DNA from: Gaiellaceae bacterium
Lineage (GTDB): Bacteria; Actinomycetota; Thermoleophilia; Gaiellales; Gaiellaceae
NCBI GenBank assembly: GCA_036268235.1
Contig: DATAUN010000071.1
Span: forward strand, 1 to 46,983
Direction of reading: 5' to 3'
DNA length: 46,983 nucleotides
Both the position numbers and the translations under genes were made by a program. Numbering within the stretch: position 1 is the first letter of the stretch; every line of letters begins with the position of its first letter. Under the pieces are notes generated by a model. That model did no database searches. It was not told where the DNA came from and saw only the letters and a list, made by a program, of their open reading frames with translations. Below are positions 6,657-43,251 of the stretch, in pieces.

Positions 6657-7283
6657 ATGCAGATCGTGGTCGACGTGCACGAGCCGAAGCCGATGGAGCG
6701 CACGCTTCGTGCCCTGGGGCTCGACGTTCTCGTGATGAGCTTGCGCGCGGGTGATTACATGATCGATGACGTCGCGGTCGTCGAGCGAAAGACAGTGCGC
6801 GATCTCCACCTTTCGGTTATACAGGGACGCCTTTGGCGACAGCTGAGCCTCATCCGCCGTCGCGCACCCTGGCGATACCTGCTCATCGAGGGACAGTCGA
6901 TGTACGACGGCCCTGTCTCGAGCGAAGCGATCAGGGGACTCGTAATCGCGGTCGACGAGCTTGGCGTTTGCGTTGTGCACTCGCGGGATCTCCAAGACTC
7001 GGCCGCGTGGCTCACACGGATTGCCCGTCGCCGCCTTGGCGAGCACCGAACGATCGATCGGCCGGTCTACGCGCAACGACCAAAGCGCGAGCCTGGCGTC
7101 TCGCCGCCGGAGCAAGCGCTCTCCGCCGCTGCAGGGATCTCGACGGTCACAGCACGAACGCTCCTCGGGCGATTCGGCTCTCTTCTGGAAGTACTGAGCG
7201 CTCCCCCGGAGGAGCTGCAGCGTGTCCCGGGTGTCGGCGCCAACCGCGCCCATGCGATTCATAGCCTCGCGCAGAGCAACTAG
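6657..7283 (+). CDS. ERCC4/XPF-Mus81-type nuclease domain protein with a C-terminal (HhH)2 domain
   Basis: Signature AGDYMIDDVAVVERKTVRDL (GDx(n)ERKxxxD). C-terminal GISTVTARTLLGRFGSLLEVLSAPPEELQRVPGVGANRAHAI (tandem helix-hairpin-helix). 208 aa from the ATG at 6657. Sampled stretches are 57-58% GC against about 77% in neighbours. Confidence 0.8.
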   Translation: MQIVVDVHEPKPMERTLRALGLDVLVMSLRAGDYMIDDVAVVERKTVRDLHLSVIQGRLWRQLSLIRRRAPWRYLLIEGQSMYDGPVSSEAIRGLVIAVDELGVCVVHSRDLQDSAAWLTRIARRRLGEHRTIDRPVYAQRPKREPGVSPPEQALSAAAGISTVTARTLLGRFGSLLEVLSAPPEELQRVPGVGANRAHAIHSLAQSN

Positions 7284-9361: not shown

Positions 9362-9554
9362 AGGAACCGCCGCAACAGCCGCCGCTACCGAAGCTGGGCT
9401 GCCCGGAGGTGCCGTGTGCCGCGAACGAGGTGCTGAACTGCTTGGCGACCTTCTGGTTGCCGCAGTCCGGGCAGACCGGGTCGGGATCGGACATCCCGAC
9501 GAGCTCCTCGAAATGTGATTCGCAGCTCATGCAGACGTAGTCGTAGATCGGCAT
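9348..9554 (-). CDS. FmdB-family zinc-ribbon protein (CxxC_CxxC_SSSS) with a Gly/Cys-rich tail
   Basis: MPIYDYVCMSCESHFEELV...PVCPDCG, and the tail GSGGCCGGSCGCC. 68 aa from the ATG at 9554. The longer track ORF 9348..9944 has an implausible N-terminus. Confidence 0.8.
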   Translation of the reverse strand: MPIYDYVCMSCESHFEELVGMSDPDPVCPDCGNQKVAKQFSTSFAAHGTSGQPSFGSGGCCGGSCGCC

Positions 9555-16798: not shown

Positions 16799-16810
16799 AG
16801 GAGAAGCACC

Positions 16811-17410
16811 ATGCCCAGCCGCACCAGACTGATCGCCATCGCCGCCGTGTGCGGCATCGCACTCGCGCTCGCGAGCTCGGCGTTCGCGCATGCGCGTCTC
16901 AGCCCGCCTGTGTCTGTCTCCGGGCAGCTGCAGCTCTACAGCCTCGCCGTCCCGACGGAGAAGGCGAACCTGAAGACGACGAAGATCGTCCTGACCGTCC
17001 CGGCCGGCTTCGGCATCGACTCGTTCGTGCCGCCGCCCACGGGCTGGACGCAGCAGATCCAGCAGACGGGCTCCGGCGACAGCGCAGTCGTGCAAAAGGT
17101 GACCTGGACCGGCGGCAACGTGCCGACCGGCGAGGACTCGCTGTTCCAGTTCCTCGCGCAACCTGCGAAGTCGGGCACGTACACGTTTGACGTGCAGCAG
17201 ACCTACTCGGACGGCTCGATCGTCGACTGGAACCAGGCCGAGTCCGGCGCGAACCCGGCGCCGGCGATCCAGGCGAAGAGCTCGCTCGGCGGCGGCGGGA
17301 CACCGACGCTGACGATCGTCGCGCTCGTTCTCGGTGCGCTCGGGATCCTGATCGGCGGCGTCGCGCTGCTCGGCCGCGGTAGTGGTGGCGGAGGCCGGCA
17401 GCTCGCATGA
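16811..17410 (+). CDS. ycnI: YcnI-family (DUF1775) copper-binding protein with a C-terminal TM anchor
   Basis: Signal ...ASSAFA|HARLSP (N-terminal His after cleavage). Pattern VPTE..., W.G, Q.YSDGS.V.W. TM segment LTIVALVLGALGILIGGVALL. AAAGGAG RBS. Confidence 0.85.
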   Translation: MPSRTRLIAIAAVCGIALALASSAFAHARLSPPVSVSGQLQLYSLAVPTEKANLKTTKIVLTVPAGFGIDSFVPPPTGWTQQIQQTGSGDSAVVQKVTWTGGNVPTGEDSLFQFLAQPAKSGTYTFDVQQTYSDGSIVDWNQAESGANPAPAIQAKSSLGGGGTPTLTIVALVLGALGILIGGVALLGRGSGGGGRQLA

Positions 17411-19125
17411 GAATCCGGGGGCGGATTGCTGCAGCAACGCTCGTCGTTGGGGTCGGGCTCGCCCTGCCCGCGGTCGCGTCGGCGCATGCCTACCTGACCA
17501 AGACCGTCCCGGCGGCAAGCGTCCAGCTGAGCAGTCCGCCCCCGAACATCCAGCTCACCTACGACGAGGCGGTCGAGCCTCGCTTCGCGGTGATCTCCGT
17601 CACCGATGTGAACGCGCACTCGGTGACGAGCGGCACCGTGACGCGCTCGCCGTCGAACCCCGACACGCTCATCATCCCGCTCAAGCGCATCCCCGAGGGC
17701 TGGTACCTCGTCTACTGGCGCGCGATCTCGGTCGACGGGCACCCGGTGCAGGGAGCGTTCACCTTCGCCGTCGGCCCGAACGCGGGTCCTGCGCCGCAAT
17801 TCGTGGTCCCGCACATCGCGCAGACGGCGACGTCGACGCCGCTTCTGATCGCGCGCTGGCTCTCGTTCCTCACCGTGATGACGGCGATCGGGCTCTTCAT
17901 CCTGCGCACACTCATTGCGCGGCCGCTCGTCGGTCGCGTGCCCGGAACGACGCTGCGCGGCGTCTCGGTCGCGTTCTTCGTCTCGGCGGCACTCGCGATC
18001 GTCGCGATCCCCGCCTACCTCGAGGAGTCGACGGCGATCGACTCGCTGCGCTCGTTCTTCTCGTTCGGCGCGCTCGTGCCACTCTGGCGGACGACGGCGT
18101 TCGGGCGCGGCTGGTTCGACCTGTGGATCTGTTTCCTGCTGTTCGTCTTCGCGGGCGCCGTCGCGCTCGCCGTCGACCGGCCCGAGCTGCCGCGGCGCAC
18201 GATCGCGTCCCTGCTCGCGCTCCCCGGCGCGCTCGCGGCGGCGGCAGCGGTGCTCGTCCTGCCGGGCGCAAGCGGCCACGCCGGCCAGACGTCGCCCCGG
18301 GGCCTCGCGGTGCTGTTGGACTGGCTGCACCTCGTCTCCGGGTCGGTGTGGCTCGGTGGACTGATCGGCCTGCTCGTGCTCTGGCGCAGCCTGCCGGCCG
18401 CGAAGCGCGTCGCCGGCCTCGTCGTCTGCGTGCCGCGCTTCTCGAACGTCGCGTTCGTCTCGGTGCTCGTGCTGCTCGGGAGCGGCGTGTGGGCGTCGAT
18501 CCTGCACCTGCCCGTGCTCGACGCGCTGTGGCTCACGAGCTACGGCAAGGTGATCCTGATCAAGGCGGCGATCCTGCTCGCGACGCTGCCGCTTGCTGCA
18601 GGCAACCTGCTCCGGAACAAGCCGCAACTCGGACGCGCCGAGCTGAGCGAGCGTGCCACGAAGCGGCTGCGCGCATTCGTCGCCGGTGAGGCGTTCCTCG
18701 TCGCCGGCGCAGTGTTCGCAGCCGCGCTGCTCTCGAGCCTCGCGCCGCCGCCGCCCGCCTTCGCGAAGGAGGGATCGGCACTCGCCAAGGTCGGGCCCGG
18801 CCGCGTCTCGTCGGTGTCGCACGTCGACGGCTACACGTTGAAGCTGCTCGTCAGCCCGAATCGCGCGATCGCCGAGAACGCCTTCGCGCTCGAGCTGAGC
18901 AGAGGCGGCAAGCCCGTGCGCGGCGCGACGGTCACGGCTGCGTTCAACCAGCTGGACATGGTGATGCCCCAGCAGGAGTACAGCCTCGTCGAGACGCAGC
19001 CCGGCCTCTACACGCGCAGGGCGGCGCCGCTCGTCATGGTCGGAACCTGGGGCCTCACGTTCGACGTCACACCGAAGCAGGGAACGCCGTTCGAGGCCAC
19101 GATCGTCGACCGGGCAAACGGATGA
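17407..19125 (+). CDS. CopC-CopD fusion protein (YcnJ-like) with a C-terminal YtkA/FixH-like domain
   Basis: Signal ...AVASA|HAYLTKTVP and W.A.S.DGHP.QG (CopC). At least 8 TM helices (CopD). C-terminal soluble domain GYTLKLLVSP...MVMPQQEYSL...GTWGLTFDV. ATGA overlap with ycnI. Confidence 0.9.
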   Translation: MRIRGRIAAATLVVGVGLALPAVASAHAYLTKTVPAASVQLSSPPPNIQLTYDEAVEPRFAVISVTDVNAHSVTSGTVTRSPSNPDTLIIPLKRIPEGWYLVYWRAISVDGHPVQGAFTFAVGPNAGPAPQFVVPHIAQTATSTPLLIARWLSFLTVMTAIGLFILRTLIARPLVGRVPGTTLRGVSVAFFVSAALAIVAIPAYLEESTAIDSLRSFFSFGALVPLWRTTAFGRGWFDLWICFLLFVFAGAVALAVDRPELPRRTIASLLALPGALAAAAAVLVLPGASGHAGQTSPRGLAVLLDWLHLVSGSVWLGGLIGLLVLWRSLPAAKRVAGLVVCVPRFSNVAFVSVLVLLGSGVWASILHLPVLDALWLTSYGKVILIKAAILLATLPLAAGNLLRNKPQLGRAELSERATKRLRAFVAGEAFLVAGAVFAAALLSSLAPPPPAFAKEGSALAKVGPGRVSSVSHVDGYTLKLLVSPNRAIAENAFALELSRGGKPVRGATVTAAFNQLDMVMPQQEYSLVETQPGLYTRRAAPLVMVGTWGLTFDVTPKQGTPFEATIVDRANG

Positions 19126-19672: not shown

Positions 19673-20296
19673 CTAGAGCGAGACGAGCACTGCGACGGCG
19701 ATCGGCGCCGCGACCGCGAGCAGCGTCGCCGCCAGCGCGCGCTGCCGCGTCCAGCCGTGCACCGAGCGCACGCCGATCACGAGCAGCACGAGCGCCCAGA
19801 CGAAAAACCCGTACGTGAGCAGGTCGAACACGCCACCGCCGAGCCCCGTGTCGCGGCCGCCTGTGTGGAACCAGTCGCTCCCGTAGAGCGAGAGCTTCAC
19901 CGGCCAGAGGACGAGCGAGAGCGCCATCGGGACGCACGCGAACGCGAGCACGTGCCGCGAGCGGCGATAGCTGCCCTGCGAGCCGAACAGCTTGACGCTG
20001 CCGTGCAGCAGCGCGCCGATCGCGAAGTAGCCGAACGCGCCGTAGATCAGCCCGAAGAGGAACGCCCAGATCGCGGTGAGCGTCGCGTCGAACGTGCCGT
20101 CGTCCATCAGGTGCGCGGCCGTGCCGGTCGTGAGCACGGCGGCGATCCCCGCGAGGATCACGACCAGGAGGATCGGCTCGGCGCGGTCGGCGGACGACTC
20201 CTTGCTGTCGTTGCGCAGCGCGACGAACACCGGGCGCGGCCGCTGCAGCACGAGCAGCGTGCGGAGCCACCAGTCGTGGACGCCGTCGGCGTCCAC
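19673..20296 (-). CDS. Yip1-family integral membrane protein
   Basis: Five hydrophobic helices with a Yip1-like layout (ILLVVILAGIAAVL, AIWAFLFGLIYGAFGYFAIGALL, VLAFACVPMALSLVLWPV, FDLLTYGFFVWALVLLVIG, LAATLLAVAAPIAVAVLV). GTG at 20296 chosen because the upstream gene stops at 20301. Confidence 0.6.
   Translation of the reverse strand: MDADGVHDWWLRTLLVLQRPRPVFVALRNDSKESSADRAEPILLVVILAGIAAVLTTGTAAHLMDDGTFDATLTAIWAFLFGLIYGAFGYFAIGALLHGSVKLFGSQGSYRRSRHVLAFACVPMALSLVLWPVKLSLYGSDWFHTGGRDTGLGGGVFDLLTYGFFVWALVLLVIGVRSVHGWTRQRALAATLLAVAAPIAVAVLVSL

Positions 20297-20509: not shown

Positions 20510-20513
<4 letters not shown>
20301..20513 (-). CDS. Small (70 aa) N-terminally anchored Cys-containing protein, coupled to the uvrA stop
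   Basis: GTG overlaps the uvrA TGA (GTGA). TM segment [20 protein letters not shown], then CKDG...[12 protein letters not shown] sampled 60-nt stretch is about 57% GC. Confidence 0.5.
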
Positions 20514-23347
<2,834 letters not shown>

Positions 23348-23367
23348 GGGACGGCCATTGTACCGCG

Positions 23368-23381
23368 CGAACGTGTGTTCG
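23368..23381. promoter_or_regulatory. LexA (SOS/Cheo-type) box CGAACGTGTGTTCG, 21-34 nt upstream of the uvrA ATG in the divergent intergenic region
   Basis: Perfect match to the core CGAAC-N4-GTTCG of the actinobacterial/Gram-positive consensus TCGAAC-N4-GTTCGA. uvrA is a canonical SOS gene. Confidence 0.65.
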
Positions 23382-23411
23382 TACAGGGGTGATCTCTATT
23401 CTCCCGAGGGC

Positions 23412-23798
23412 GTGGGCTCGCCGGACTTCGACCTCGTTGCTGCTTCGCTGCGCGCCGACCGCGGCGACCTCGAAGCCTTCGTCGAGGCGCTCGCCGTGAA
23501 GCTCGAGGGCGCCTTGCCCGGGGCGGCGAGAGTGAGCCGCGGGGGCGGCCGGCTCTTCGGCGGGGGCACGAAGCGCGTCGAGCGAATCGCGGTGCAGCTC
23601 GGCCCCGACGAGTACGAGCTGGAGCACGGACGAGGAGCGCTCGATTGCCGCCGGCGGACCGTCGTGCGCGGCATCGCGCTCAAGAACGAGACTCTGTCGG
23701 TGGACGAGTGGATCGACGCGGTCTCGCGCGCGCTCGTCGCCGAAGCCGACGAGAGCGAGCATGCGCGCATCGCGCTCGAGAGGCTGCTCGACGCATGA
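23412..23798 (+). CDS. Hypothetical protein (~128 aa), first gene of the operon divergent from uvrA
   Basis: High GC3. C-terminal region ...SVDEWIDAVSRALVAEADESEHARIALERLL. The stop overlaps the next ATG (ATGA). The start is uncertain. The GTG at 23412 is proposed, the in-frame GTG at 23373 lies inside the SOS box, and the track start at 23211 is inside uvrA. Confidence 0.5.
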   Translation: MGSPDFDLVAASLRADRGDLEAFVEALAVKLEGALPGAARVSRGGGRLFGGGTKRVERIAVQLGPDEYELEHGRGALDCRRRTVVRGIALKNETLSVDEWIDAVSRALVAEADESEHARIALERLLDA

Positions 23799-24682
23799 CC
23801 GACGAGCGCAGCGCCCGCGATCTCGCGTCGATCGAGGCGGGCGGCATCCCGCTCGCGGCGCAGGAGCGCCTCGACGCGGTCAAGGCGCGCGGCGGACGAT
23901 TCTTCACGAGCGACCTGTCGACGAACGAGTTTCTCCTGACGCGGCAGGCGGGCTTCCAGCCGATCACGCAGGTGATGGGCTCGAGCGTCTACCACGTCGG
24001 CTGGCAGCAGATGCCTTGGGCGTCGTCGTGGTCGTTCCCGGACGGCGGCTCGACCGAGCTCGACGTGATCACCAACGCCTGGAACGAGGCGCGCGGCCGC
24101 GCGCTCGGGCGGCTCGCCGAGGAGGCCAAGCGCGCGGGCGCGGACGCGGTCGTCGGTGTCAGGCTCGCGCGCGGCGGCTTCGAGTGGATGGGCGACCTCG
24201 TCGAGTTCACCTCGTTCGGAACGGCGATGCGCTCGACGCGCTACGCCATCGAGGACGCCCCCGTGCTCTCGAACCTGTCCGGCCAGGACTTCGCGAAGCT
24301 CTATCTGAACGGCTACTGGCCGGTCGGCCTCGTCGCGGCGACGAGCGTGACCTACATCGTGTCGAGCTGGTCGACGCAGCGCGCCCAGCGCGGCTTCGCA
24401 GCGCGGATGCAGAACCAGGAGCTGACCGACTACACCCAAGGGCTCTACGACGCGCGCACCCGCGCGATCATGCGCCTCCAGCGGCAAGCGCACGAGGCCG
24501 GCGCGCACGGCGTCGTCGGCGTCGAGATCGAGCAGCACCACGCGGAGCGCGAGGTCGAGCAAAACGGCTCGCGCACGGATTTGATCGTCACGTTGCACGT
24601 CGTAGGAACCGCAATCGTCGAGCTCGCGACCGATGAGCTCCCGCCCACGTACATCGCCCTATCCCTGAAGGAGAACGCATGA
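23795..24682 (+). CDS. Protein with two tandem YbjQ/UPF0145 (DUF74, so-called heavy-metal-binding) domains
   Basis: Domain 1 is FFTSDLSTNEFLL...EARGRALGRLAEEAKRAGADAVVGVRL...FTSFGTAM. Domain 2 is LSGQDFAKL...DARTRAIMRLQRQAHEAGAHGVVGVEI...LHVVGTAI. 295 aa from the ATG at 23795. Confidence 0.8.
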   Translation: MTDERSARDLASIEAGGIPLAAQERLDAVKARGGRFFTSDLSTNEFLLTRQAGFQPITQVMGSSVYHVGWQQMPWASSWSFPDGGSTELDVITNAWNEARGRALGRLAEEAKRAGADAVVGVRLARGGFEWMGDLVEFTSFGTAMRSTRYAIEDAPVLSNLSGQDFAKLYLNGYWPVGLVAATSVTYIVSSWSTQRAQRGFAARMQNQELTDYTQGLYDARTRAIMRLQRQAHEAGAHGVVGVEIEQHHAEREVEQNGSRTDLIVTLHVVGTAIVELATDELPPTYIALSLKENA

Positions 24683-25542
24683 GCGACGACCTCCAAGAGC
24701 AGGAGCAGTACGAGGCCGGATCGACGGTCGGCATCCCCGAGCACGGCCGCGAGCGGCTCGCGAAGATGAAGGGCCACGGCTTCTTCACGAGCGACCTCTC
24801 CGTGAACGAGTTCCTGCTCGTCAAGGAGGCCGGCTTCGATCCGCTCGGGCTCGTCGTCGGCAGCTCGATCTACCACATCGGCTTCCAGGCGGGGCAGTGG
24901 AACCAGAGCCAGGAGATGGACGTCCTGACGCAGGCGATGTACCACGCGCGCGAGCTCGCGATGACGCGGATGGAGGAGGAGGCCGACCAGCTCGGCGCGG
25001 ACGGGGTCGTCGGCGTGCGGCTCGACGTGTCGCGGTACGAATGGGGCGGCGAGCTTGCGGAGTTCATCGCGATCGGCACCGCGGTGCGCCATCGCGAAGG
25101 CGTCCTGCATCGCGCGCCCAACGGTCGCCCGTTCACGAGCGACCTCACCGGCCAGGACTTCTGGACGCTCCTCTCCGCCGGCTACCGGCCGGTCGGGATG
25201 GTCATGGGCACGTGCGTCTACCACGTCGCGCACCAGGGCCTCAGCGGCTGGTTCAAGCGCGTCGGCCGCAACACGGAGATGCCGAACTACACGCAGGCGC
25301 TCTACGACGCGCGCGAGCTGGCGATGGAGCGGATGCAGACGGAGGCGGAAGCGCTCGGCGCGGAGGGCATCGTCGGCGTGCAGCTGCACGAGGGCTCGCA
25401 CGGCTGGAGCTCGCACGTGATCGAGTACTTCGCCGTCGGCACGGCGATCGTCCCGACCTCGGACGACCACACGATCCCGACGCCGTCCCTGGTGCTCACT
25501 CTGAACGACGGCCCGCGGCAGGACCGGCTCAGCGGCTTCTAG
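24679..25542 (+). CDS. Paralogous protein with two tandem YbjQ/UPF0145 domains
   Basis: FFTSDLSVNEFLL...HARELAMTRMEEEADQLGADGVVGVRL...FIAIGTAV, then LTGQDFWTL...DARELAMERMQTEAEALGAEGIVGVQL...YFAVGTAI. ATGA overlap with the upstream paralog. Confidence 0.8.
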   Translation: MSDDLQEQEQYEAGSTVGIPEHGRERLAKMKGHGFFTSDLSVNEFLLVKEAGFDPLGLVVGSSIYHIGFQAGQWNQSQEMDVLTQAMYHARELAMTRMEEEADQLGADGVVGVRLDVSRYEWGGELAEFIAIGTAVRHREGVLHRAPNGRPFTSDLTGQDFWTLLSAGYRPVGMVMGTCVYHVAHQGLSGWFKRVGRNTEMPNYTQALYDARELAMERMQTEAEALGAEGIVGVQLHEGSHGWSSHVIEYFAVGTAIVPTSDDHTIPTPSLVLTLNDGPRQDRLSGF

Positions 25543-25576: not shown

Positions 25577-26632
25577 ATGACCGGGACCGCCAAACGCGTC
25601 GCGATCGCCACGCTCGTCGCCGGCGGGATCGTCGTCGTCGGCCTCGCGCTCTGGAAGCTCCGCCTGGTGGTCGGGCTCCTGTTCGCGGCGATGATCATCG
25701 CCGCCGCGCTGCGCCCGAGCGTCGAGTGGCTCGTGCGCCGCCGGACGCCGAAGGTGGCCGCGGTGCTGATCCACTACGTCGTGCTCTTCGGGATGATCGG
25801 CGTCGCTCTCGCCTACGCCGGGCCCGCGGCGAAGCACCAGGTCGACCATGCGTTGAGCCCGAGCGGCAAGGCGGCGATCGCGCACGCGGCGAAGCACTCG
25901 ACCGGCGTCAAGCATCAGCTGCTCGTTGCGCTGCAGAAGCGGCTGAATCACCTGCCGTCGAAATCGCAGCTGATCAAGCCCGCTGCGCAGATTGGCCTGA
26001 AGGCGTTCGAGGTCCTGATCGGCGTCTTCTTCACGTTCGCGGCGGCGGCGTACTGGATCTTCGAGCGCGACAAGGCAGTGGACGTCGTGTGCTCGTTGCT
26101 CGAGCGACCGAAGCGCAAAAAGGTGCGCGACACGTGGACGCTGATCGACCTTCGCCTCGGCGCGTTCGTGCGCGGTCAGGTGCTGTTGATCTGCGCGGTC
26201 GGCACCGCGCTCTCGCTCGCGTTCTGGGCGATCGGCGAGCCGTACTGGATCCTCGTCGGCAGCTTCGCCGGGCTCGTCGAGATGATCCCCGTGATCGGGC
26301 CGCTCTCCGCGGGTGTGCTCGCAGTCGCGGTTGGGTTCACGGCGTCGGTGACGGTGGCGATCGCCGCGGCGATTTGCGTGCTCGCGGTGCGCCTGCTGGA
26401 GGACTACGCGGTCATGCCGAAGGTGCTCGGCGACGCCGTGGGGCTCTCGCCGCTCCTCGTGCTCGTGTCGGTGACGGCCGTCGGGATCCTCTTCAGCGGC
26501 TGGGCGGTGCTGTTCGCGGTGCCGATCGCCGCGGTCGCGATGACGCTGTTCGACGTGGTGCTGCGCGACGTCGACCCCGCCGAGGAAGACGTTCCGGCGG
26601 TGATCTTCTCACCGAAGGAGGCGGAGGCTTAG
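25577..26632 (+). CDS. AI-2E family transporter (PerM/UPF0118)
   Basis: 351 aa, about 8 TM helices, and a conserved C-terminal block [20 protein letters not shown] typical of the family. Confidence 0.85.
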
Positions 26633-27129
26633 GCGAGCGCCGCTGCGAACGCGTTGTACGCCTCGTCGTTGAAGAGCACGAAGCGCACGAGGTCGAGGTC
26701 GTGGCCGTGCGCGCGCACGGTCTCGACGGCGATCGCGGCAGCCTGCGCGACGGGGTAGCCGTAGACACCGCACGAAATCGCAGGAAACGCGACCTTCCGC
26801 ACGCCGAGCTCGCGCGCGACGTCGAGCGAACGCCGGTGCGCGGATGCGAGCAGCTCCGGCTCGCCGTGGTCGCCGCCGTGCCAGACCGGGCCGACCGTGT
26901 GGATCACGTAGCGGGCGGCGAGCCGGCCGCCGTGCGTCGCCTTCGCATCGCCGGCGTTGCAGCCGCCGAGCAGGCGGCACTCCTCGAGCAGCTCGGGGCC
27001 GGCCGCGCGATGGATCGCCCCGTCCACCCCGCCCCCGCCGAGCAGCGTCGCGTTCGCAGCGTTGACGATCGCATCGACGTCCTGCGCCGTGATGTCGCCG
27101 CGGACAATGTCGATGGCGGCCACGTCCAT
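26629..27129 (-). CDS. Macro-domain protein (O-acetyl-ADP-ribose deacetylase / YmdB-like)
   Basis: [43 protein letters not shown], and [13 protein letters not shown]. Confidence 0.9.
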
Positions 27130-27133
27130 GTGC

Positions 27134-27148
27134 GTAACAGTCTGTTAC
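27134..27148. promoter_or_regulatory. 15-bp palindrome GTAACAGTCTGTTAC, copy 1 (5 nt upstream of the macro-domain start codon)
   Basis: Read directly. Perfect 7-1-7 palindrome, AT-rich in a >70% GC context. The identical copy is 65 bp away. Confidence 0.5.
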
Positions 27149-27198
27149 AAGCTCGGCTCGAGGCGCGGCGGCTCCACGCGTTGCGCGCTTCGAAGCTT

Positions 27199-27213
27199 GT
27201 AACAGTCTGTTAC
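27199..27213. promoter_or_regulatory. 15-bp palindrome GTAACAGTCTGTTAC, copy 2
   Basis: Identical to copy 1. The flanks also mirror each other (..TTACAAGCT / AGCTTGTAA..), giving 20-nt arms separated by 40 nt. Confidence 0.5.
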
Positions 27214-27233
27214 TAGCTCGGGATGCGGGACGC

Positions 27234-27476
27234 TCAGGCCTTGCGCCAGCGGCCGAAGATCAGGCCGCCGATCGTGAAGCCGAGGCCGAACGTGCCGAAG
27301 GCGAAGCCGCCGATCGCGATGCCCTTGCGCCACGTCGACAGGCGCTGCCAGCGGCCGAGCGCCTCGCGCTCGTCGGCCGTCAGCGGCTCGCCGCGACGCT
27401 GCTTACGGAGCGCACCGCCTGCGCGCAAGCCGAGATAAAGGTCATCGAAGATCTCCGTCGACTGTTCGTCGGCCAT
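27234..27476 (-). CDS. Small (80 aa) membrane protein, unknown function
   Basis: ATG at 27476. Gly-rich TM segment GIAIGGFAFGTFGLGFTIGGLIFG at the C-terminus. The rest of track ORF 27234..27839 is shadow of the phosphoesterase gene. Confidence 0.5.
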   Translation of the reverse strand: MADEQSTEIFDDLYLGLRAGGALRKQRRGEPLTADEREALGRWQRLSTWRKGIAIGGFAFGTFGLGFTIGGLIFGRWRKA

Positions 27477-27504
27477 CTCGCTCACTGTATAGCCTGCTTC
27501 GCCG

Positions 27505-28299
27505 GTGACTACGCGCATCCTGCACGTATCGGATCTCCACGTCGGGTCGCGGGACGATCCGATCGTGGAGGCTGCGCTCGGGGCGATGGTGGAGCAGGCG
27601 CGGCCGGAGCTCGTGGTCGCAACCGGGGATCTGAGCCACCGTGGGCGCCGCGACGAGCACGAACGCGCGGCGTCGCTGCTCCGCTCGCTCGGCCCGCCGG
27701 TCGTCGCGATTCCCGGGAACCACGACATCCCGTTCGCCTTCCCGGCCCGGTTCACGTCCCCGTGGCGCGAGTTCGAGCGGCAGTGGGAGACGACCGAGCC
27801 GCTCTTCGCGACGCCGGCGCTCCACGTCGTCGGAATCAACTCGGTCCGGCCGTGGCGGCATCAGTCGGGCGGCGTCCGCGACGACCAGCTCGACCGCGTC
27901 GTCGAGCGGCTCGCGCAGGCGGCACCCGGCGCACTGCGCATCGTCGCCCTGCACCACCAGCTGATCGGTGCGCCCTGGCGGACGCGGAAGCGTCCCGTCG
28001 CCCGGCGCGACCACGTGCTCGCCCGCGTCGTCGACTCCGGAGCCGACCTGATCGTCGGCGGGCACATCCACCAGGCCGCGGTGTCGGAACGCCACGAGTT
28101 CGAGATCGTCGCCGATGGAGCGCGGACGGCCGTCGTCTCGATCGCGCCCGGTGCGGGACAGCCGCGCCCACATCGCCACGGCGAGGCGCGCGGCTGCATG
28201 GTGTACGTCGCAGACGACGACGTGCTGACGGTCGAGACGTGGATCTGGGTCGGCGGCGCGTGGTCGCAGACCGCGACGCGCCGGTTCGCGCGGGCCTAG
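27505..28299 (+). CDS. Metallophosphoesterase (calcineurin-like)
   Basis: Motifs HVSDLH, TGDLSHRG, PGNHD, ALHH, and GGHIH in canonical order. Confidence 0.85.
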   Translation: MTTRILHVSDLHVGSRDDPIVEAALGAMVEQARPELVVATGDLSHRGRRDEHERAASLLRSLGPPVVAIPGNHDIPFAFPARFTSPWREFERQWETTEPLFATPALHVVGINSVRPWRHQSGGVRDDQLDRVVERLAQAAPGALRIVALHHQLIGAPWRTRKRPVARRDHVLARVVDSGADLIVGGHIHQAAVSERHEFEIVADGARTAVVSIAPGAGQPRPHRHGEARGCMVYVADDDVLTVETWIWVGGAWSQTATRRFARA

Positions 28300-28775
28300 G
28301 AGGGCTTGGTCTCGAGCTGCTCGCGCTTGGCCGCCAGCTCGTCGTCGTCGAGCAGCCCCGCGCGGTGGAGCTCCTGCAGCATCGCTTCGAGCCGCGCGTG
28401 CTGGAGGTGCTGGGGATCCGGCCGGAGGTTGTCGGGATCGATGCCGAGCTTGCGCAGCTTCTCGCGCTGCTCGGTGACACCGACCCCCCGCTCCGGGAAC
28501 GCGAGCGCGCCGGGACCGATGATCGGACGCCGCTGGATGAAGTGCCGGTACGACGCGACGAGCGCGATCGCGATCCCGAACGAGAGGAACGAGACCACAT
28601 AGCCGTTGTCGCCGGCGATCGCGTCGCCGACAACGGCGCCGATGATCGATCCGACGAGGCCGATCGCGACCGTGAGCCAGATCGGCATCGGGTCGGGCCC
28701 CGGAATCGCGAGCCGCGCCAGGCCGCCGGTGATGAACCCGGACACGAGGATCGCGAGCACGAAGCCGAGGCTCAT
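28296..28775 (-). CDS. GlsB/YeaQ/YmgE-type membrane protein fused to a C-terminal SHOCT-like domain, coupled to the uvrB stop
   Basis: [22 protein letters not shown]...[16 protein letters not shown] (Gly-zipper TM helices). C-terminal [25 protein letters not shown] at 28775 overlaps the uvrB stop (ATGA). Confidence 0.65.
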
Positions 28776-30781
28776 GCCGTCGCCACCTCGGCAATCGCGT
28801 TCAGGTCGCGGCGGATCTCCTTGATCTCGTCGCGGAGCTTCGCGGCGTACTCGAAGCGCAGCTCTTCGGCGGCGGTGAACATCTCTTCCTCGAGCGTCAC
28901 GAGCAGCCGCTCGAGCTCCTCGCGACTCAAGCCCTCGGCCTTGTCGCCACGGCGCCGGCGCGACTTCGGCACGTGCGGCTGCTCGAGCTGCAGGAACTCC
29001 GCGATGTCCGAGACGCCCTTCGTGATCGAGATCGGCTTCGTGCCGTGCTCCTCGTTGTACGCGAGCTGAATCGCGCGGCGCCGGTTCGTCTCGTCGAGCG
29101 CGGACTTGATCGCCTCCGTCTGCTTGTCGGCGTACATCAGCACCTTGCCCTCGACGTGCCGCGCCGCGCGGCCGATCGTCTGGATGAGCGCGGTATTGCC
29201 GCGCAGGAAACCTTCCTTGTCGGCGTCGAGGATCGCGACGAGCGACACCTCGGGCAGATCGAGTCCCTCGCGGAGCAGGTTCACGCCGACGAGCACGTCG
29301 TAGTCGCCGAGCCGGAGCTCGCGGATGATCTGGATGCGCTCGAGCGTGTCGACCTCGGAATGGAGATAGCGCGTCTTGACGCCCGCCTCGAGGAGGTAGT
29401 CGGTCAGGTCCTCCGACATCTTCTTGGTGAGCGTCGTGACGAGCACGCGCTCGCCCTTCTCCTCGCGCTTGCGGATCTCGTTGAGGAGGTCGTCGATCTG
29501 GTTCCTCGTCGGCCGCAGCTCGACGACAGGGTCGATGAGGAACGTCGGCCTGATGAGCTGTTCTGCGATGCGCGTCGACTGGCGCAGCTCCCACGCGCCC
29601 GGCGTGGCCGACACGAACACCATCTGCCCGACCTTCTCGAGGTACTCGTCGAAGCGGAGCGGGCGGTTGTCGAGCGCGCTCGGCAAGCGGAAGCCGAAAT
29701 CGACAAGCGTCTGCTTGCGCGAGCGGTCGCCTTCGTACATGCCCCCGATCTGCGGAACCGTCTGGTGCGACTCGTCGACGAAGACGACGAAGTCGGACGG
29801 GAAGTAGTCGAGCAGCGTGTGCGGCGCCGAGCCGGGCGGGCGGCCGTCGAGGATGCGGGAGTAGTTCTCGATCCCGTTGCAGAAGCCGAGCTCTTTCATC
29901 ATCTCGAGGTCGTACTCGGTGCGCTGCCGGATGCGGTGCGCCTCGAGCATCATCCCCTTCGACTCGAAGAGCTTGACCTGCTCCTCGAGCTCGTGGCGGA
30001 TCTCGCCGAGCGCGCGGTCGATCGTCGGCTTCGACGTGACGTACTGCGTCGCCGGGAAGACGGTGATCGAATCGAGCTTCGACAGGACCTCGCCGGTGAG
30101 CGGGTCGAAGTGCGTGATCTGCTCGACCTCGTCACCGAAGAACGAGACTCGATACGCGGTCTCCGCGTGCGACGGTTGGATCTCGATCACGTCGCCCTTG
30201 ACGCGGAAGCGGCCGCGTCCGAGCAGCGTGTCGTTGCGCGCGTACTGGATGTCGATCAGCTTGCGCAGCACGAGATCGCGGTCGGTCTCCTCGCCGACGT
30301 TCAGGAAGACGATGCGCTTCTCGTACTCCTCGGGTGAGCCGAGACCGTAGATGCACGAGACCGACGCGACGATGATCGTGTCGCGGCGGGACAGCAAGCT
30401 CGAGGTCGCCGCGTGGCGGAGCCGGTCGATGTCGTCGTTGCGCGAGCTGTCCTTCTCGATGTAGAGGTCGGCCTGCGGGACGTACGCCTCCGGCTGGTAG
30501 TAGTCGTAATAGGAGACGAAGTACTCGACCGCGTTGTCGGGAAAGAACTCGCGGAACTCGTTGCAGAGCTGCGCTGCGAGCGTCTTGTTGTGGGCGATCA
30601 CGAGCGCGGGGCGCTGCACCTGCTCGATGATCCAGGCCATCGTTGCGGTCTTGCCCGTGCCGGTCGCGCCGAGCAGCGTCTGACAGCGCTCGCCCGCGCG
30701 GATCCCGTCCGAGAGGGTCGCGATCGCCCCGGGCTGGTCGCCCGTCGGCGCGTACGCAGTCGATGTTTTGAGGGGCGGCAC
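28772..30781 (-). CDS. uvrB: Excinuclease ABC subunit B
   Basis: PTGDQPGAI, Walker [13 protein letters not shown] box (FVDESHQT), and C-terminal UVR domain ([17 protein letters not shown]). Confidence 0.97.
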
Positions 30782-30802
30782 GGCAGGGACAGGGTAACCC
30801 GC

Positions 30803-31276
30803 ATGGCTCAGCAGACGAACGCGCCGCCGTACGGCGCCTACGCGGGGATCATGGCCACCTTTGTAGGCGGCCTCGCCACGGCGGGCGCGCTCGCCCGGCT
30901 GCTCGACCGCGACCCGCGCGACTACGACGCGCTCGACCTGGTCGTCCTCGGGCTCGCCACCTACAAGGCGTCGCGCACGATCGCACGTGACGAGGTGACG
31001 AGCTTCCTGCGCGAGCCGTTCGTCGAGGGCACCGCAAAGGAAGGCGCCGAGGATCCGGTCGAGACCGGCGATCTCCGCCAGGCGGTCGGCGAGCTCGTCA
31101 CCTGCTCACGCTGCATCGGAACCTGGGTCGCAGCGGGGCTCTCGATGACGCAGATCATCGCCCCGCAGTTCGGCCGCCTGCTCACGTGGACCCTCGCCAC
31201 CGCCGGCGCGAACGACTGGCTGCAAGCCGGCTTCGCCGCGCTCACCGCGAAGGCGAACGAGCTCGAACGCTCGTAG
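30803..31276 (+). CDS. DUF1360-domain membrane protein
   Basis: [25 protein letters not shown] ... [17 protein letters not shown] matches the DUF1360 pattern. ATG at 30803, 22 nt from the uvrB start. Confidence 0.7.
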
Positions 31277-31282
31277 AGGGTG

Positions 31283-42709: not shown

Positions 42710-43251
42710 AACAGCGAAAGCCCCGTGGAGGGGCTTTCGTCGATGGACCCAGGCGGGCTCGAACCGCCGACCTCCTGCGTGCCACGCAGGCGCTCTCCCA
42801 GCTGAGCTATGGGCCCCCGGAACCTCGCAAGTGTAGCCCCGAACTCATATTCATGAGCCCAGTTGATGAGCTTCTGCTGGTTGTTCCGTGACGGGGCCAA
42901 CCGAAGTTGCACGAGTGCACGGCCGACCGACATCTCGGGCGGAAGCAGATAGCACTGACGCAGCTCAGCGCAGTACGCAGCGATCACATCGATCTCGCCC
43001 TGCTTGTAATTGCGGTGGATCAACCCCTCCGGTCCGCGCCGACACCGACGCGTCCTGACCAGGACGACATCGCCGTGCTTCGCGGCCCACTTGCATTGAA
43101 CGCGCACGAGCTCCGGCCGCAAGTCGAGGATCAGGTCGTACCGCTCGTCGCCGAGCGGTTGGAACACTCCCAGGCCGTAGTGCAGCGCTTCGAAGACAAT
43201 TGCCTGCTCAGCAAGTACACCCTTCTGATCCGTCGTCAGCACCGACAACAA
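42706..43251 (-). CDS. PD-(D/E)XK endonuclease-like protein (group I intron-associated PDDEXK_5-like). The ORF continues in frame through tRNA-Ala.
   Basis: N-terminal TTDQKGVLAEQAIVFEALHYGLGVFQPLGDERYDLILD...LVRVQCK matches the G..AE...G..V..P.gd..yDLi.d...rvQvK pattern. Codon 146 starts exactly at tRNA nucleotide 1, and residues 146-181 (GPIAQLGERLRGTQEVGGSSPPGS...) are tRNA and terminator sequence. Sampled stretches are 52-63% GC. Confidence 0.55.
   Translation of the reverse strand: MLSVLTTDQKGVLAEQAIVFEALHYGLGVFQPLGDERYDLILDLRPELVRVQCKWAAKHGDVVLVRTRRCRRGPEGLIHRNYKQGEIDVIAAYCAELRQCYLLPPEMSVGRALVQLRLAPSRNNQQKLINWAHEYEFGATLARFRGPIAQLGERLRGTQEVGGSSPPGSIDESPSTGLSLF
42716..42738. terminator. 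Hairpin GAAAGCCCC-GTGGA-GGGGCTTTC (9-bp stem) between the 42446 gene and the tRNA 3' end. Bidirectional terminator candidate.
   Basis: Read directly. A GC-rich stem flanked by A/T runs in the stem base. Confidence 0.6.
42744..42816 (-). tRNA. tRNA-Ala (anticodon GGC), no encoded CCA
   Basis: The reverse complement GGGCCCATAGCTCAGCTGGGAGAGCGCCTGCGTGGCACGCAGGAGGTCGGCGGTTCGAGCCCGCCTGGGTCCA folds as a cloverleaf. It has a 7-bp acceptor stem with the G3:U70 Ala identity pair, D arm GCTC/GAGC, anticodon stem CCTGC/GCAGG with loop GTGGCAC, and a T arm GGCGG-TTCGAGC-CCGCC. Confidence 0.9.

Follow-up and report, generated by a model that had tools for sequence, protein, structure and literature searches.

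A predicted LexA operator of uvrA in a Gaiellaceae genome that probably also represses a divergent module of unk128 and tandem YbjQ genes

We analyzed a 46,983-nucleotide stretch of DNA from a Gaiellaceae bacterium (hereafter the window) and found that the 64-bp gap separating uvrA from a divergent gene module contains one palindrome that is very probably the LexA operator of uvrA. The module consists of a gene for an uncharacterized 128-aa protein (unk128) and two genes for tandem YbjQ-domain proteins, and it is probably co-repressed through the same site. We put the probability of this combined explanation at about 0.62. Any SOS control of the module is predicted to be positional and specific to one lineage. 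The features discussed below are listed in Table 1.

Table 1 Coordinates of the features in the window and the evidence on which each is placed.
Feature	Position	Strand	Evidence
LexA operator (SOS box), predicted	23368-23381		Exact and unique core; box with 0-1 mismatch kept in 13 Thermoleophilia and 7 own-clade uvrA loci
Predicted uvrA -10 hexamer TACAAT	23357-23362	-	5 nt separate it from the box and 9 nt from the ATG; read from the sequence and the alignment
uvrA, 945 aa, ATG start	20510-23347	-	Translation; UvrA Pfam domains in orthologues
70-aa ORF with a hydrophobic segment	20301-20513	-	GTGA start/stop overlap with uvrA (20510-20513); tblastn matches in L081-L085
Yip1-domain membrane protein (PF04893)	19673-20296	-	Start candidate GTG 20296, 4 nt after the 70-aa ORF
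Predicted module -10 hexamer TATTCT	23397-23402	+	15 nt from the box, 9 nt before GTG 23412 (leaderless)
unk128, 128 aa, GTG start, first module gene	23412-23798	+	No Pfam family; homologue alignment
Tandem YbjQ_1 protein A, 295 aa	23795-24682	+	PF01906, two stretches, 65.1 bits; ATGA overlap with unk128
Tandem YbjQ_1 protein B, 287 aa	24679-25542	+	PF01906, two stretches, 91.3 bits, E 7e-26; ATGA overlap with protein A
AI-2E family transporter (PF01594)	25577-26632	+	34-nt gap after the module, GGGGA Shine-Dalgarno-like element
uvrB	28772-30781	-	Present in the window

The palindrome reads CGAACGTGTGTTCG and matches the core CGAAC-N4-GTTCG at 14 of 14 positions. The original prediction of a Gram-positive/actinobacterial LexA core with no mismatch was therefore confirmed by reading the sequence, with the qualification that the two outer bases differ: against the 16-bp actinobacterial consensus tCGAAC-N4-GTTCGa, the flanks here are g and t, which gives 14/16 overall. 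As had also been proposed, the box lies 21-34 nt upstream of the uvrA ATG, and it is the only one in the uvrA-unk128 gap (23348-23411). A search of both strands found no further exact CGAAC-N4-GTTCG in the window (G+C content 69.8%), making CGAACGTGTGTTCG the sole exact copy, and the 500 bp upstream of uvrB (30782-31282) contain no GAAC-N4-GTTC core with fewer than two mismatches; both results agree with the earlier statement, made by eye, that there was no second full box and none upstream of uvrB. Most boxes with one mismatch fall within ORFs predicted to be coding; the ones at 7047, 7474 and 19151 are located in unannotated gaps, and no box of this kind stands 5' of a recognized SOS gene. 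The window itself carries no lexA, recA or other core SOS gene.

Taken alone, the exact match is weak evidence, since 15 of 100 dinucleotide-preserving shuffles of the window contained at least one (chance expectation 0.16 per window). Scaled arithmetically from the window expectation to the 64-bp gap upstream of uvrA, the expectation is ~2e-4. A LexA-like site with two mismatches at 9509-9522 (minus-strand frame) was also considered; it lies inside an apparent coding sequence and is probably meaningless. The minus strand read from ATG 9554 (~9490-9554) gives MPIYDYVCMSCESHFEELV..., which we take to resemble the N-terminus of an FmdB-type zinc-ribbon protein.

The evidence for a functional site comes from related genomes. 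The region upstream of uvrA was scanned in 80 uvrA loci from species-representative genomes, and in all 13 Thermoleophilia loci among them (L001-L008, L010, L011, L013, L015 and L018) the uvrA start is preceded, at a distance of 27-46 nt, by a box with 0-1 mismatch. The same is true of seven further uvrA loci of the window's own clade, bringing the total to 20/20 Thermoleophilia loci with a box at -27 to -46. Across the 13 loci, the N4 and the flanking bases of the box are variable and the surrounding sequence has diverged. The scan also found GAAC-N4-GTTC-type boxes 5' of uvrA in loci of Coriobacteriia, Chloroflexia and Clostridia, and no such match in its alphaproteobacterial uvrA loci. Presence in these Gram-positive and Chloroflexi lineages and absence in the alphaproteobacterial loci fit the known distribution of the LexA motif, which serves as the LexA operator in Mycobacterium, Corynebacterium and Bacillus as well.

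The aligned Thermoleophilia upstream regions share one order of elements: the box, 5-6 nt, a TAnAnT hexamer, 6-9 nt, and the ATG or GTG start. TAnAnT occurs 6-9 nt before the start in 14/14 aligned uvrA upstream regions, in forms such as TACAAT, TAGAAT, TAGACT and TACACT, and on the uvrA side a box-to-hexamer distance of 15-17 nt was recorded in L001, L004 and L005. The alignment showed no Shine-Dalgarno sequence and nothing else conserved beyond the box and the hexamer. A generic sigma-70 scan of 22900-24000 predicted no promoter because neither promoter has a recognizable -35, and the -10 elements in Table 1 were obtained from the comparative alignment. We read the uvrA mRNA as leaderless or near-leaderless, with the operator in the spacer/-35 region of a promoter inferred from conservation. 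The position of the site relative to the -10 and the start is kept while its surroundings diverge, which supports the view that it behaves as a genuine, selected uvrA operator.

Two other explanations for the palindrome itself were weighed against these data. That it is a chance palindrome without function could be suggested by the shuffles that contained an exact match, but such a match would not be expected to recur by position in 20/20 related uvrA promoters with diverging flanks, where the background of boxes with 0-1 mismatch is only ~0.007 per 60 nt; the conservation data effectively refute this reading. It also appears very unlikely that a regulator other than LexA binds the conserved palindrome in this deep-branching class. 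Our literature search turned up no paper on the SOS response in Thermoleophilia, which leaves some space for such a regulator, yet the motif is identical to the Streptomyces LexA operator, it precedes a classical SOS gene, and the same motif type stands 5' of uvrA in other Gram-positive and Chloroflexi lineages. We infer LexA as the binding protein from the identity of the motif with that of other Actinobacteria.

A LexA dimer at the box, about -17 to -30 relative to the uvrA start, would occlude the spacer/-35 region of the uvrA promoter. DNA damage would then lead to RecA-stimulated self-cleavage of LexA and to the release of uvrA together with two coupled downstream genes for small membrane proteins. 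The first of these, the 70-aa ORF, is probably co-transcribed with uvrA, and the Yip1 gene is probably the third gene of the operon. A gene of 59-70 aa is called at the same place after uvrA in L081-L085, where the whole uvrA/small ORF/Yip1 trio was found, and a Yip1 homologue is also present downstream of uvrA in L001-L005. Both small membrane-protein genes are thus probably passengers of the uvrA SOS operator. Among the matches listed for the UvrA N-terminus, the closest are 86-89% identical and come from Gaiellaceae and other Actinomycetota metagenome-assembled genomes (MAGs), followed at ~75% by Solirubrobacterales; this places the source of the window among Gaiellales-like Thermoleophilia.

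On the other side of the gap, unk128 belongs to a family of at least 1301 unnamed homologues. Nearly all of them are 125-128 aa long and align over the full length, which fixes GTG 23412 as the start. The family has invariant motifs (AASLRAD, VEALA.KLE, VVRGI.LK and W.D..S), and the confident AlphaFold2 model of unk128 (pLDDT 86.7) is of the alpha/beta type, with a five-stranded sheet that follows two helices at the N-terminus and precedes two at the C-terminus. No match to the protein was found in Pfam or PADLOC, and its model has no PDB fold match at E <= 0.001. The two following proteins both score above the Pfam gathering cut-off of 23 bits for YbjQ_1 (PF01906/UPF0145). The original prediction had described two YbjQ-domain proteins in the divergent operon (23412-25542), and we found two YbjQ_1 stretches in each of them, with starts set at ATG 23795 and ATG 24679. 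No title or abstract in the YbjQ/UPF0145 literature links the family to DNA damage.

In the contexts examined, unk128 is almost always followed by tandem-YbjQ genes. An IS110-family transposase gene was seen inserted between the two YbjQ genes in one metagenomic contig (L089, 5205-6419). No terminator was detected between the module and the AI-2E transporter gene, which may or may not be a fourth gene of the module's transcription unit.

The module carries a promoter signature of its own. A TAnnnT hexamer (TAGGAT, TAGAGT, TACGAT and similar forms) lies 6-10 nt before the unk128 start in 40 of the 64 distinct contexts away from uvrA, against a background of 0.5%, and members of the window's clade have TAnnnT 8-10 nt before this start. 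This family-wide signal and the TATTCT of the window place the promoter of the divergent operon in the ~65-bp region that had been proposed as its promoter space. The hexamer is present in L087 even though the preceding gene ends only ~30 nt away. In L089, L091, L117 and L126, unk128 overlaps or abuts the stop of the upstream gene, and the hexamer is absent. On this comparative evidence, unk128-YbjQ-YbjQ is a portable module with its own predicted leaderless promoter.

Read along the plus strand, the gap thus contains the uvrA -10, 5 nt, the box, 15 nt, and the module -10. With transcription starts near 23350 (minus strand) and 23410 (plus strand), the box would cover about -31 to -44 on the module side, in addition to its position in the uvrA promoter, and the two nominal -35 positions would abut (23381-23386 and 23375-23380). 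One bound LexA dimer should therefore hinder RNA polymerase at both promoters, where competition between the two polymerases is probable as well. The module would have come to lie back-to-back with the uvrA promoter in the ancestor of one clade. This geometry makes it probable that LexA represses the module along with uvrA and that the two are induced together.

The distance from the box to the module hexamer (15 nt in the window) is 13-16 nt in six of the seven other clade loci. The exception is L084 (3946-4000), where it is 27 nt. The ~11 extra nt amount to roughly one helical turn and leave the box upstream of the -35 position, so spacing on the module side is not strictly maintained. This locus provides a natural variant for asking whether the distance of the box relieves repression.

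To place the module in its genomic contexts, we combined exact-protein look-ups with a metagenome sample. A first genome scan had suggested that the module is never found beside uvrA; this was a sampling artefact, as the look-ups revealed the adjacency in the window's clade. The unk128 homologues at 80, 79, 73, 67 and 63% identity (L081-L086) come from loci in which uvrA is divergent from unk128-YbjQ-YbjQ. The gap between uvrA and the module is 62-75 bp in all clade members, and each of the L081-L086 gaps contains a box with 0-1 mismatch. In L087-L089 (59% and 64% identity), the module immediately follows a phosphoesterase or an acyl-CoA dehydrogenase gene, and no box was found anywhere in these 8-kb loci.

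The metagenome sample yielded 80 further module loci at 47-63% identity. Only one of them, L142, has the module adjacent to uvrA (64-bp gap), and it is also the sole one of the 80 with a box. Overall, no box with 0-1 mismatch was found in the 250 nt upstream of ~75 module copies that are not beside uvrA, their best sites (at least two mismatches) being at background level. All five exact boxes in the 365 kb of module-bearing loci fall in uvrA-unk128 gaps; the same 365 kb contain 37 boxes with one mismatch. Away from uvrA, the module has a mixed set of neighbors with no repair genes among them. Nothing but its own genes recurs widely; a phosphoesterase gene was counted in 10 loci.

On the UvrA tree, the genomes with the module beside uvrA form one shallow clade, with UvrA 90-93% identical to that of the window over 500 aa, and Gaiellales-like genomes lacking the module (82-84%) branch outside it. 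Monophyly was taken from this tree, as the unk128 tree was too short and without support values. Three of the module-lacking relatives, L002 (2442-3569), L003 (2815-3882) and L005 (~1416-2399), encode an AI-2E homologue upstream of uvrA on the opposite strand and in divergent orientation, nearest to uvrA in L003 and further off in L002 and L005. In the clade, the AI-2E gene follows the module in L083-L086 and comes after two inserted genes in L081. The module therefore sits exactly between genes that are neighbors elsewhere, which means either that the window's clade gained it by insertion or that the others lost it. A single insertion in the ancestor of the clade would be enough to explain the pairing of uvrA with the module.

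The original prediction went further and had LexA controlling both directions, with the module in the DNA-damage regulon. The first part is favored by the geometry, as a box that covers the module promoter from about -31 to -44 argues for co-repression, and from position alone we consider it rather probable that the module is measurably repressed by LexA. Membership in the regulon is less well served, as the module lacks the box in ~75 other contexts, shows no linkage to repair genes elsewhere, and stands beside uvrA in one shallow clade only. The copies outside the clade, which have no box, give no sign of selection for SOS control.

These observations bear on another explanation, in which the box is the operator of uvrA alone, the module is LexA-independent (constitutive or responding to another signal), and their adjacency is an accident of insertion. 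It would account well for the box-free copies outside the clade, for the heterogeneous neighbors without repair genes, and for the monophyletic and shallow position of the uvrA-adjacent genomes on the UvrA tree. The module has the same -10 hexamer whether or not it lies beside uvrA, and E. coli ssb, which shares the uvrA box yet responds weakly, offers a precedent. However, no LexA-free promoter fits into the 64-bp gap. The box is separated from the start codon by 30 nt, and with a leaderless promoter a polymerase initiating at or before 23412 must touch the DNA covered by LexA, at about -31 to -44. The box-to-hexamer distance can be read both ways, being 11 nt longer in L084 but kept at 13-16 nt in the other six clade loci despite diverged intervening sequence. 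On balance, we find a module free of LexA control somewhat unlikely. It is a good deal more doubtful that the clade recruited the module, possibly together with the AI-2E transporter gene, into its SOS regulon by insertion and kept this wiring because the module aids survival of DNA damage or an associated stress; if true, such recruitment would be the first functional lead on the unk128 family and a case of regulon growth by promoter capture.

Co-repression of a divergent pair from a short shared gap has known counterparts. In Bacillus subtilis lexA-yneA, Mycobacterium tuberculosis lexA-Rv2719c and Corynebacterium glutamicum lexA-divS, LexA boxes in a short gap repress the divergent genes on both sides; the partner of lexA is a cell-division inhibitor, and its SOS control is conserved and functional. 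The window has the same arrangement of divergent genes, LexA box of the Gram-positive type and short intergenic region, but its partner has no association with an SOS box outside one clade. Mycobacterial uvrA is damage-induced mainly through the PafBC activator motif of a RecA-independent promoter rather than through LexA, whereas the Thermoleophilia design for this other actinobacterial uvrA is based on a LexA box. Reading the uvrA upstream region for the PafBC/RecA-independent motif (in the form TGTCGGTG-N8-TAnnnT) gave no match, and this motif was rejected as the controlling element.

The closest experimental parallel for the uvrA side comes from the same phylum. ChIP-seq in Streptomyces venezuelae gave the LexA motif tCGAAC-N4-GNNCGa, and the lexA-2 operator of this species reads TCGAACGTGTGTTT (PMC9380542). 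[quoted passage not shown] The window shares with S. venezuelae the same LexA motif at uvrA. Unlike the S. venezuelae uvrA box, the core in the window is perfect, and no shared divergent module was reported in that study (PMC9380542).

The arrangement as a whole is best compared with E. coli uvrA-ssb, a divergent pair with a single SOS box overlapping the uvrA -35 (Brandsma et al. 1983, as cited in PMC9505508). In both cases, uvrA is one partner and one intergenic box overlaps its promoter, placed to act both ways. The motifs differ (Gram-positive CGAAC-N4-GTTCG in the window, CTGT-N8-ACAG in E. coli), and so do the partners, ssb being a gene of DNA metabolism and the module being uncharacterized and without independent SOS association. 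The E. coli box lies 170 nt from ssb, controls one of three ssb promoters, and has a heterology index of 6.98, a poor match to the consensus (PMC9505508). Induction of ssb has been disputed for decades and is weak or modest and conditional, which has been attributed to this distance and to the control of only one of the three promoters (PMC9505508). In contrast, the window combines a perfect core with a 64-bp gap and two apparently leaderless promoters. This tighter geometry and better core make a stronger effect of LexA on the partner plausible by analogy.

Beyond the module, a Macro-domain O-acetyl-ADP-ribose deacetylase gene and a metallophosphoesterase gene occupy 26629-28299, between the AI-2E gene and uvrB. 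The position of the Macro gene is kept in L081-L086, and in L082 the Metallophos gene and uvrB come next. Shortly past the end of the uvrA operon lies a copper-homeostasis cluster (16799-19125), with a DUF1775 (YcnI-like) gene and, after it, a gene for a CopC-CopD fusion. This cluster has no relation to the box and is mentioned solely because Pfam labels YbjQ as 'putative heavy-metal-binding'. The sole RNA gene detected in the window by Rfam and ARAGORN is a tRNA-Ala (GGC) on the minus strand (42744-42816).

A LexA box at uvrA is ordinary and what a specialist would expect. The finding adds uvrA of the deep-branching and mostly uncultured Thermoleophilia to the genes that carry a canonical Gram-positive LexA operator, and the compact, conserved design, with the predicted operator 5-6 nt from the -10 of a leaderless uvrA, helps the annotation of SOS regulons in MAGs. 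For the module, the reading we prefer, co-repression through the uvrA operator, predicts that a set of genes with >1300 homologues is damage-inducible in this clade and not in the relatives that carry it elsewhere. The contrast between the clade and these relatives offers a natural experiment on regulon membership gained through position. Should the module not be induced, it would be another warning, like E. coli ssb, against inferring regulon membership from a shared box.
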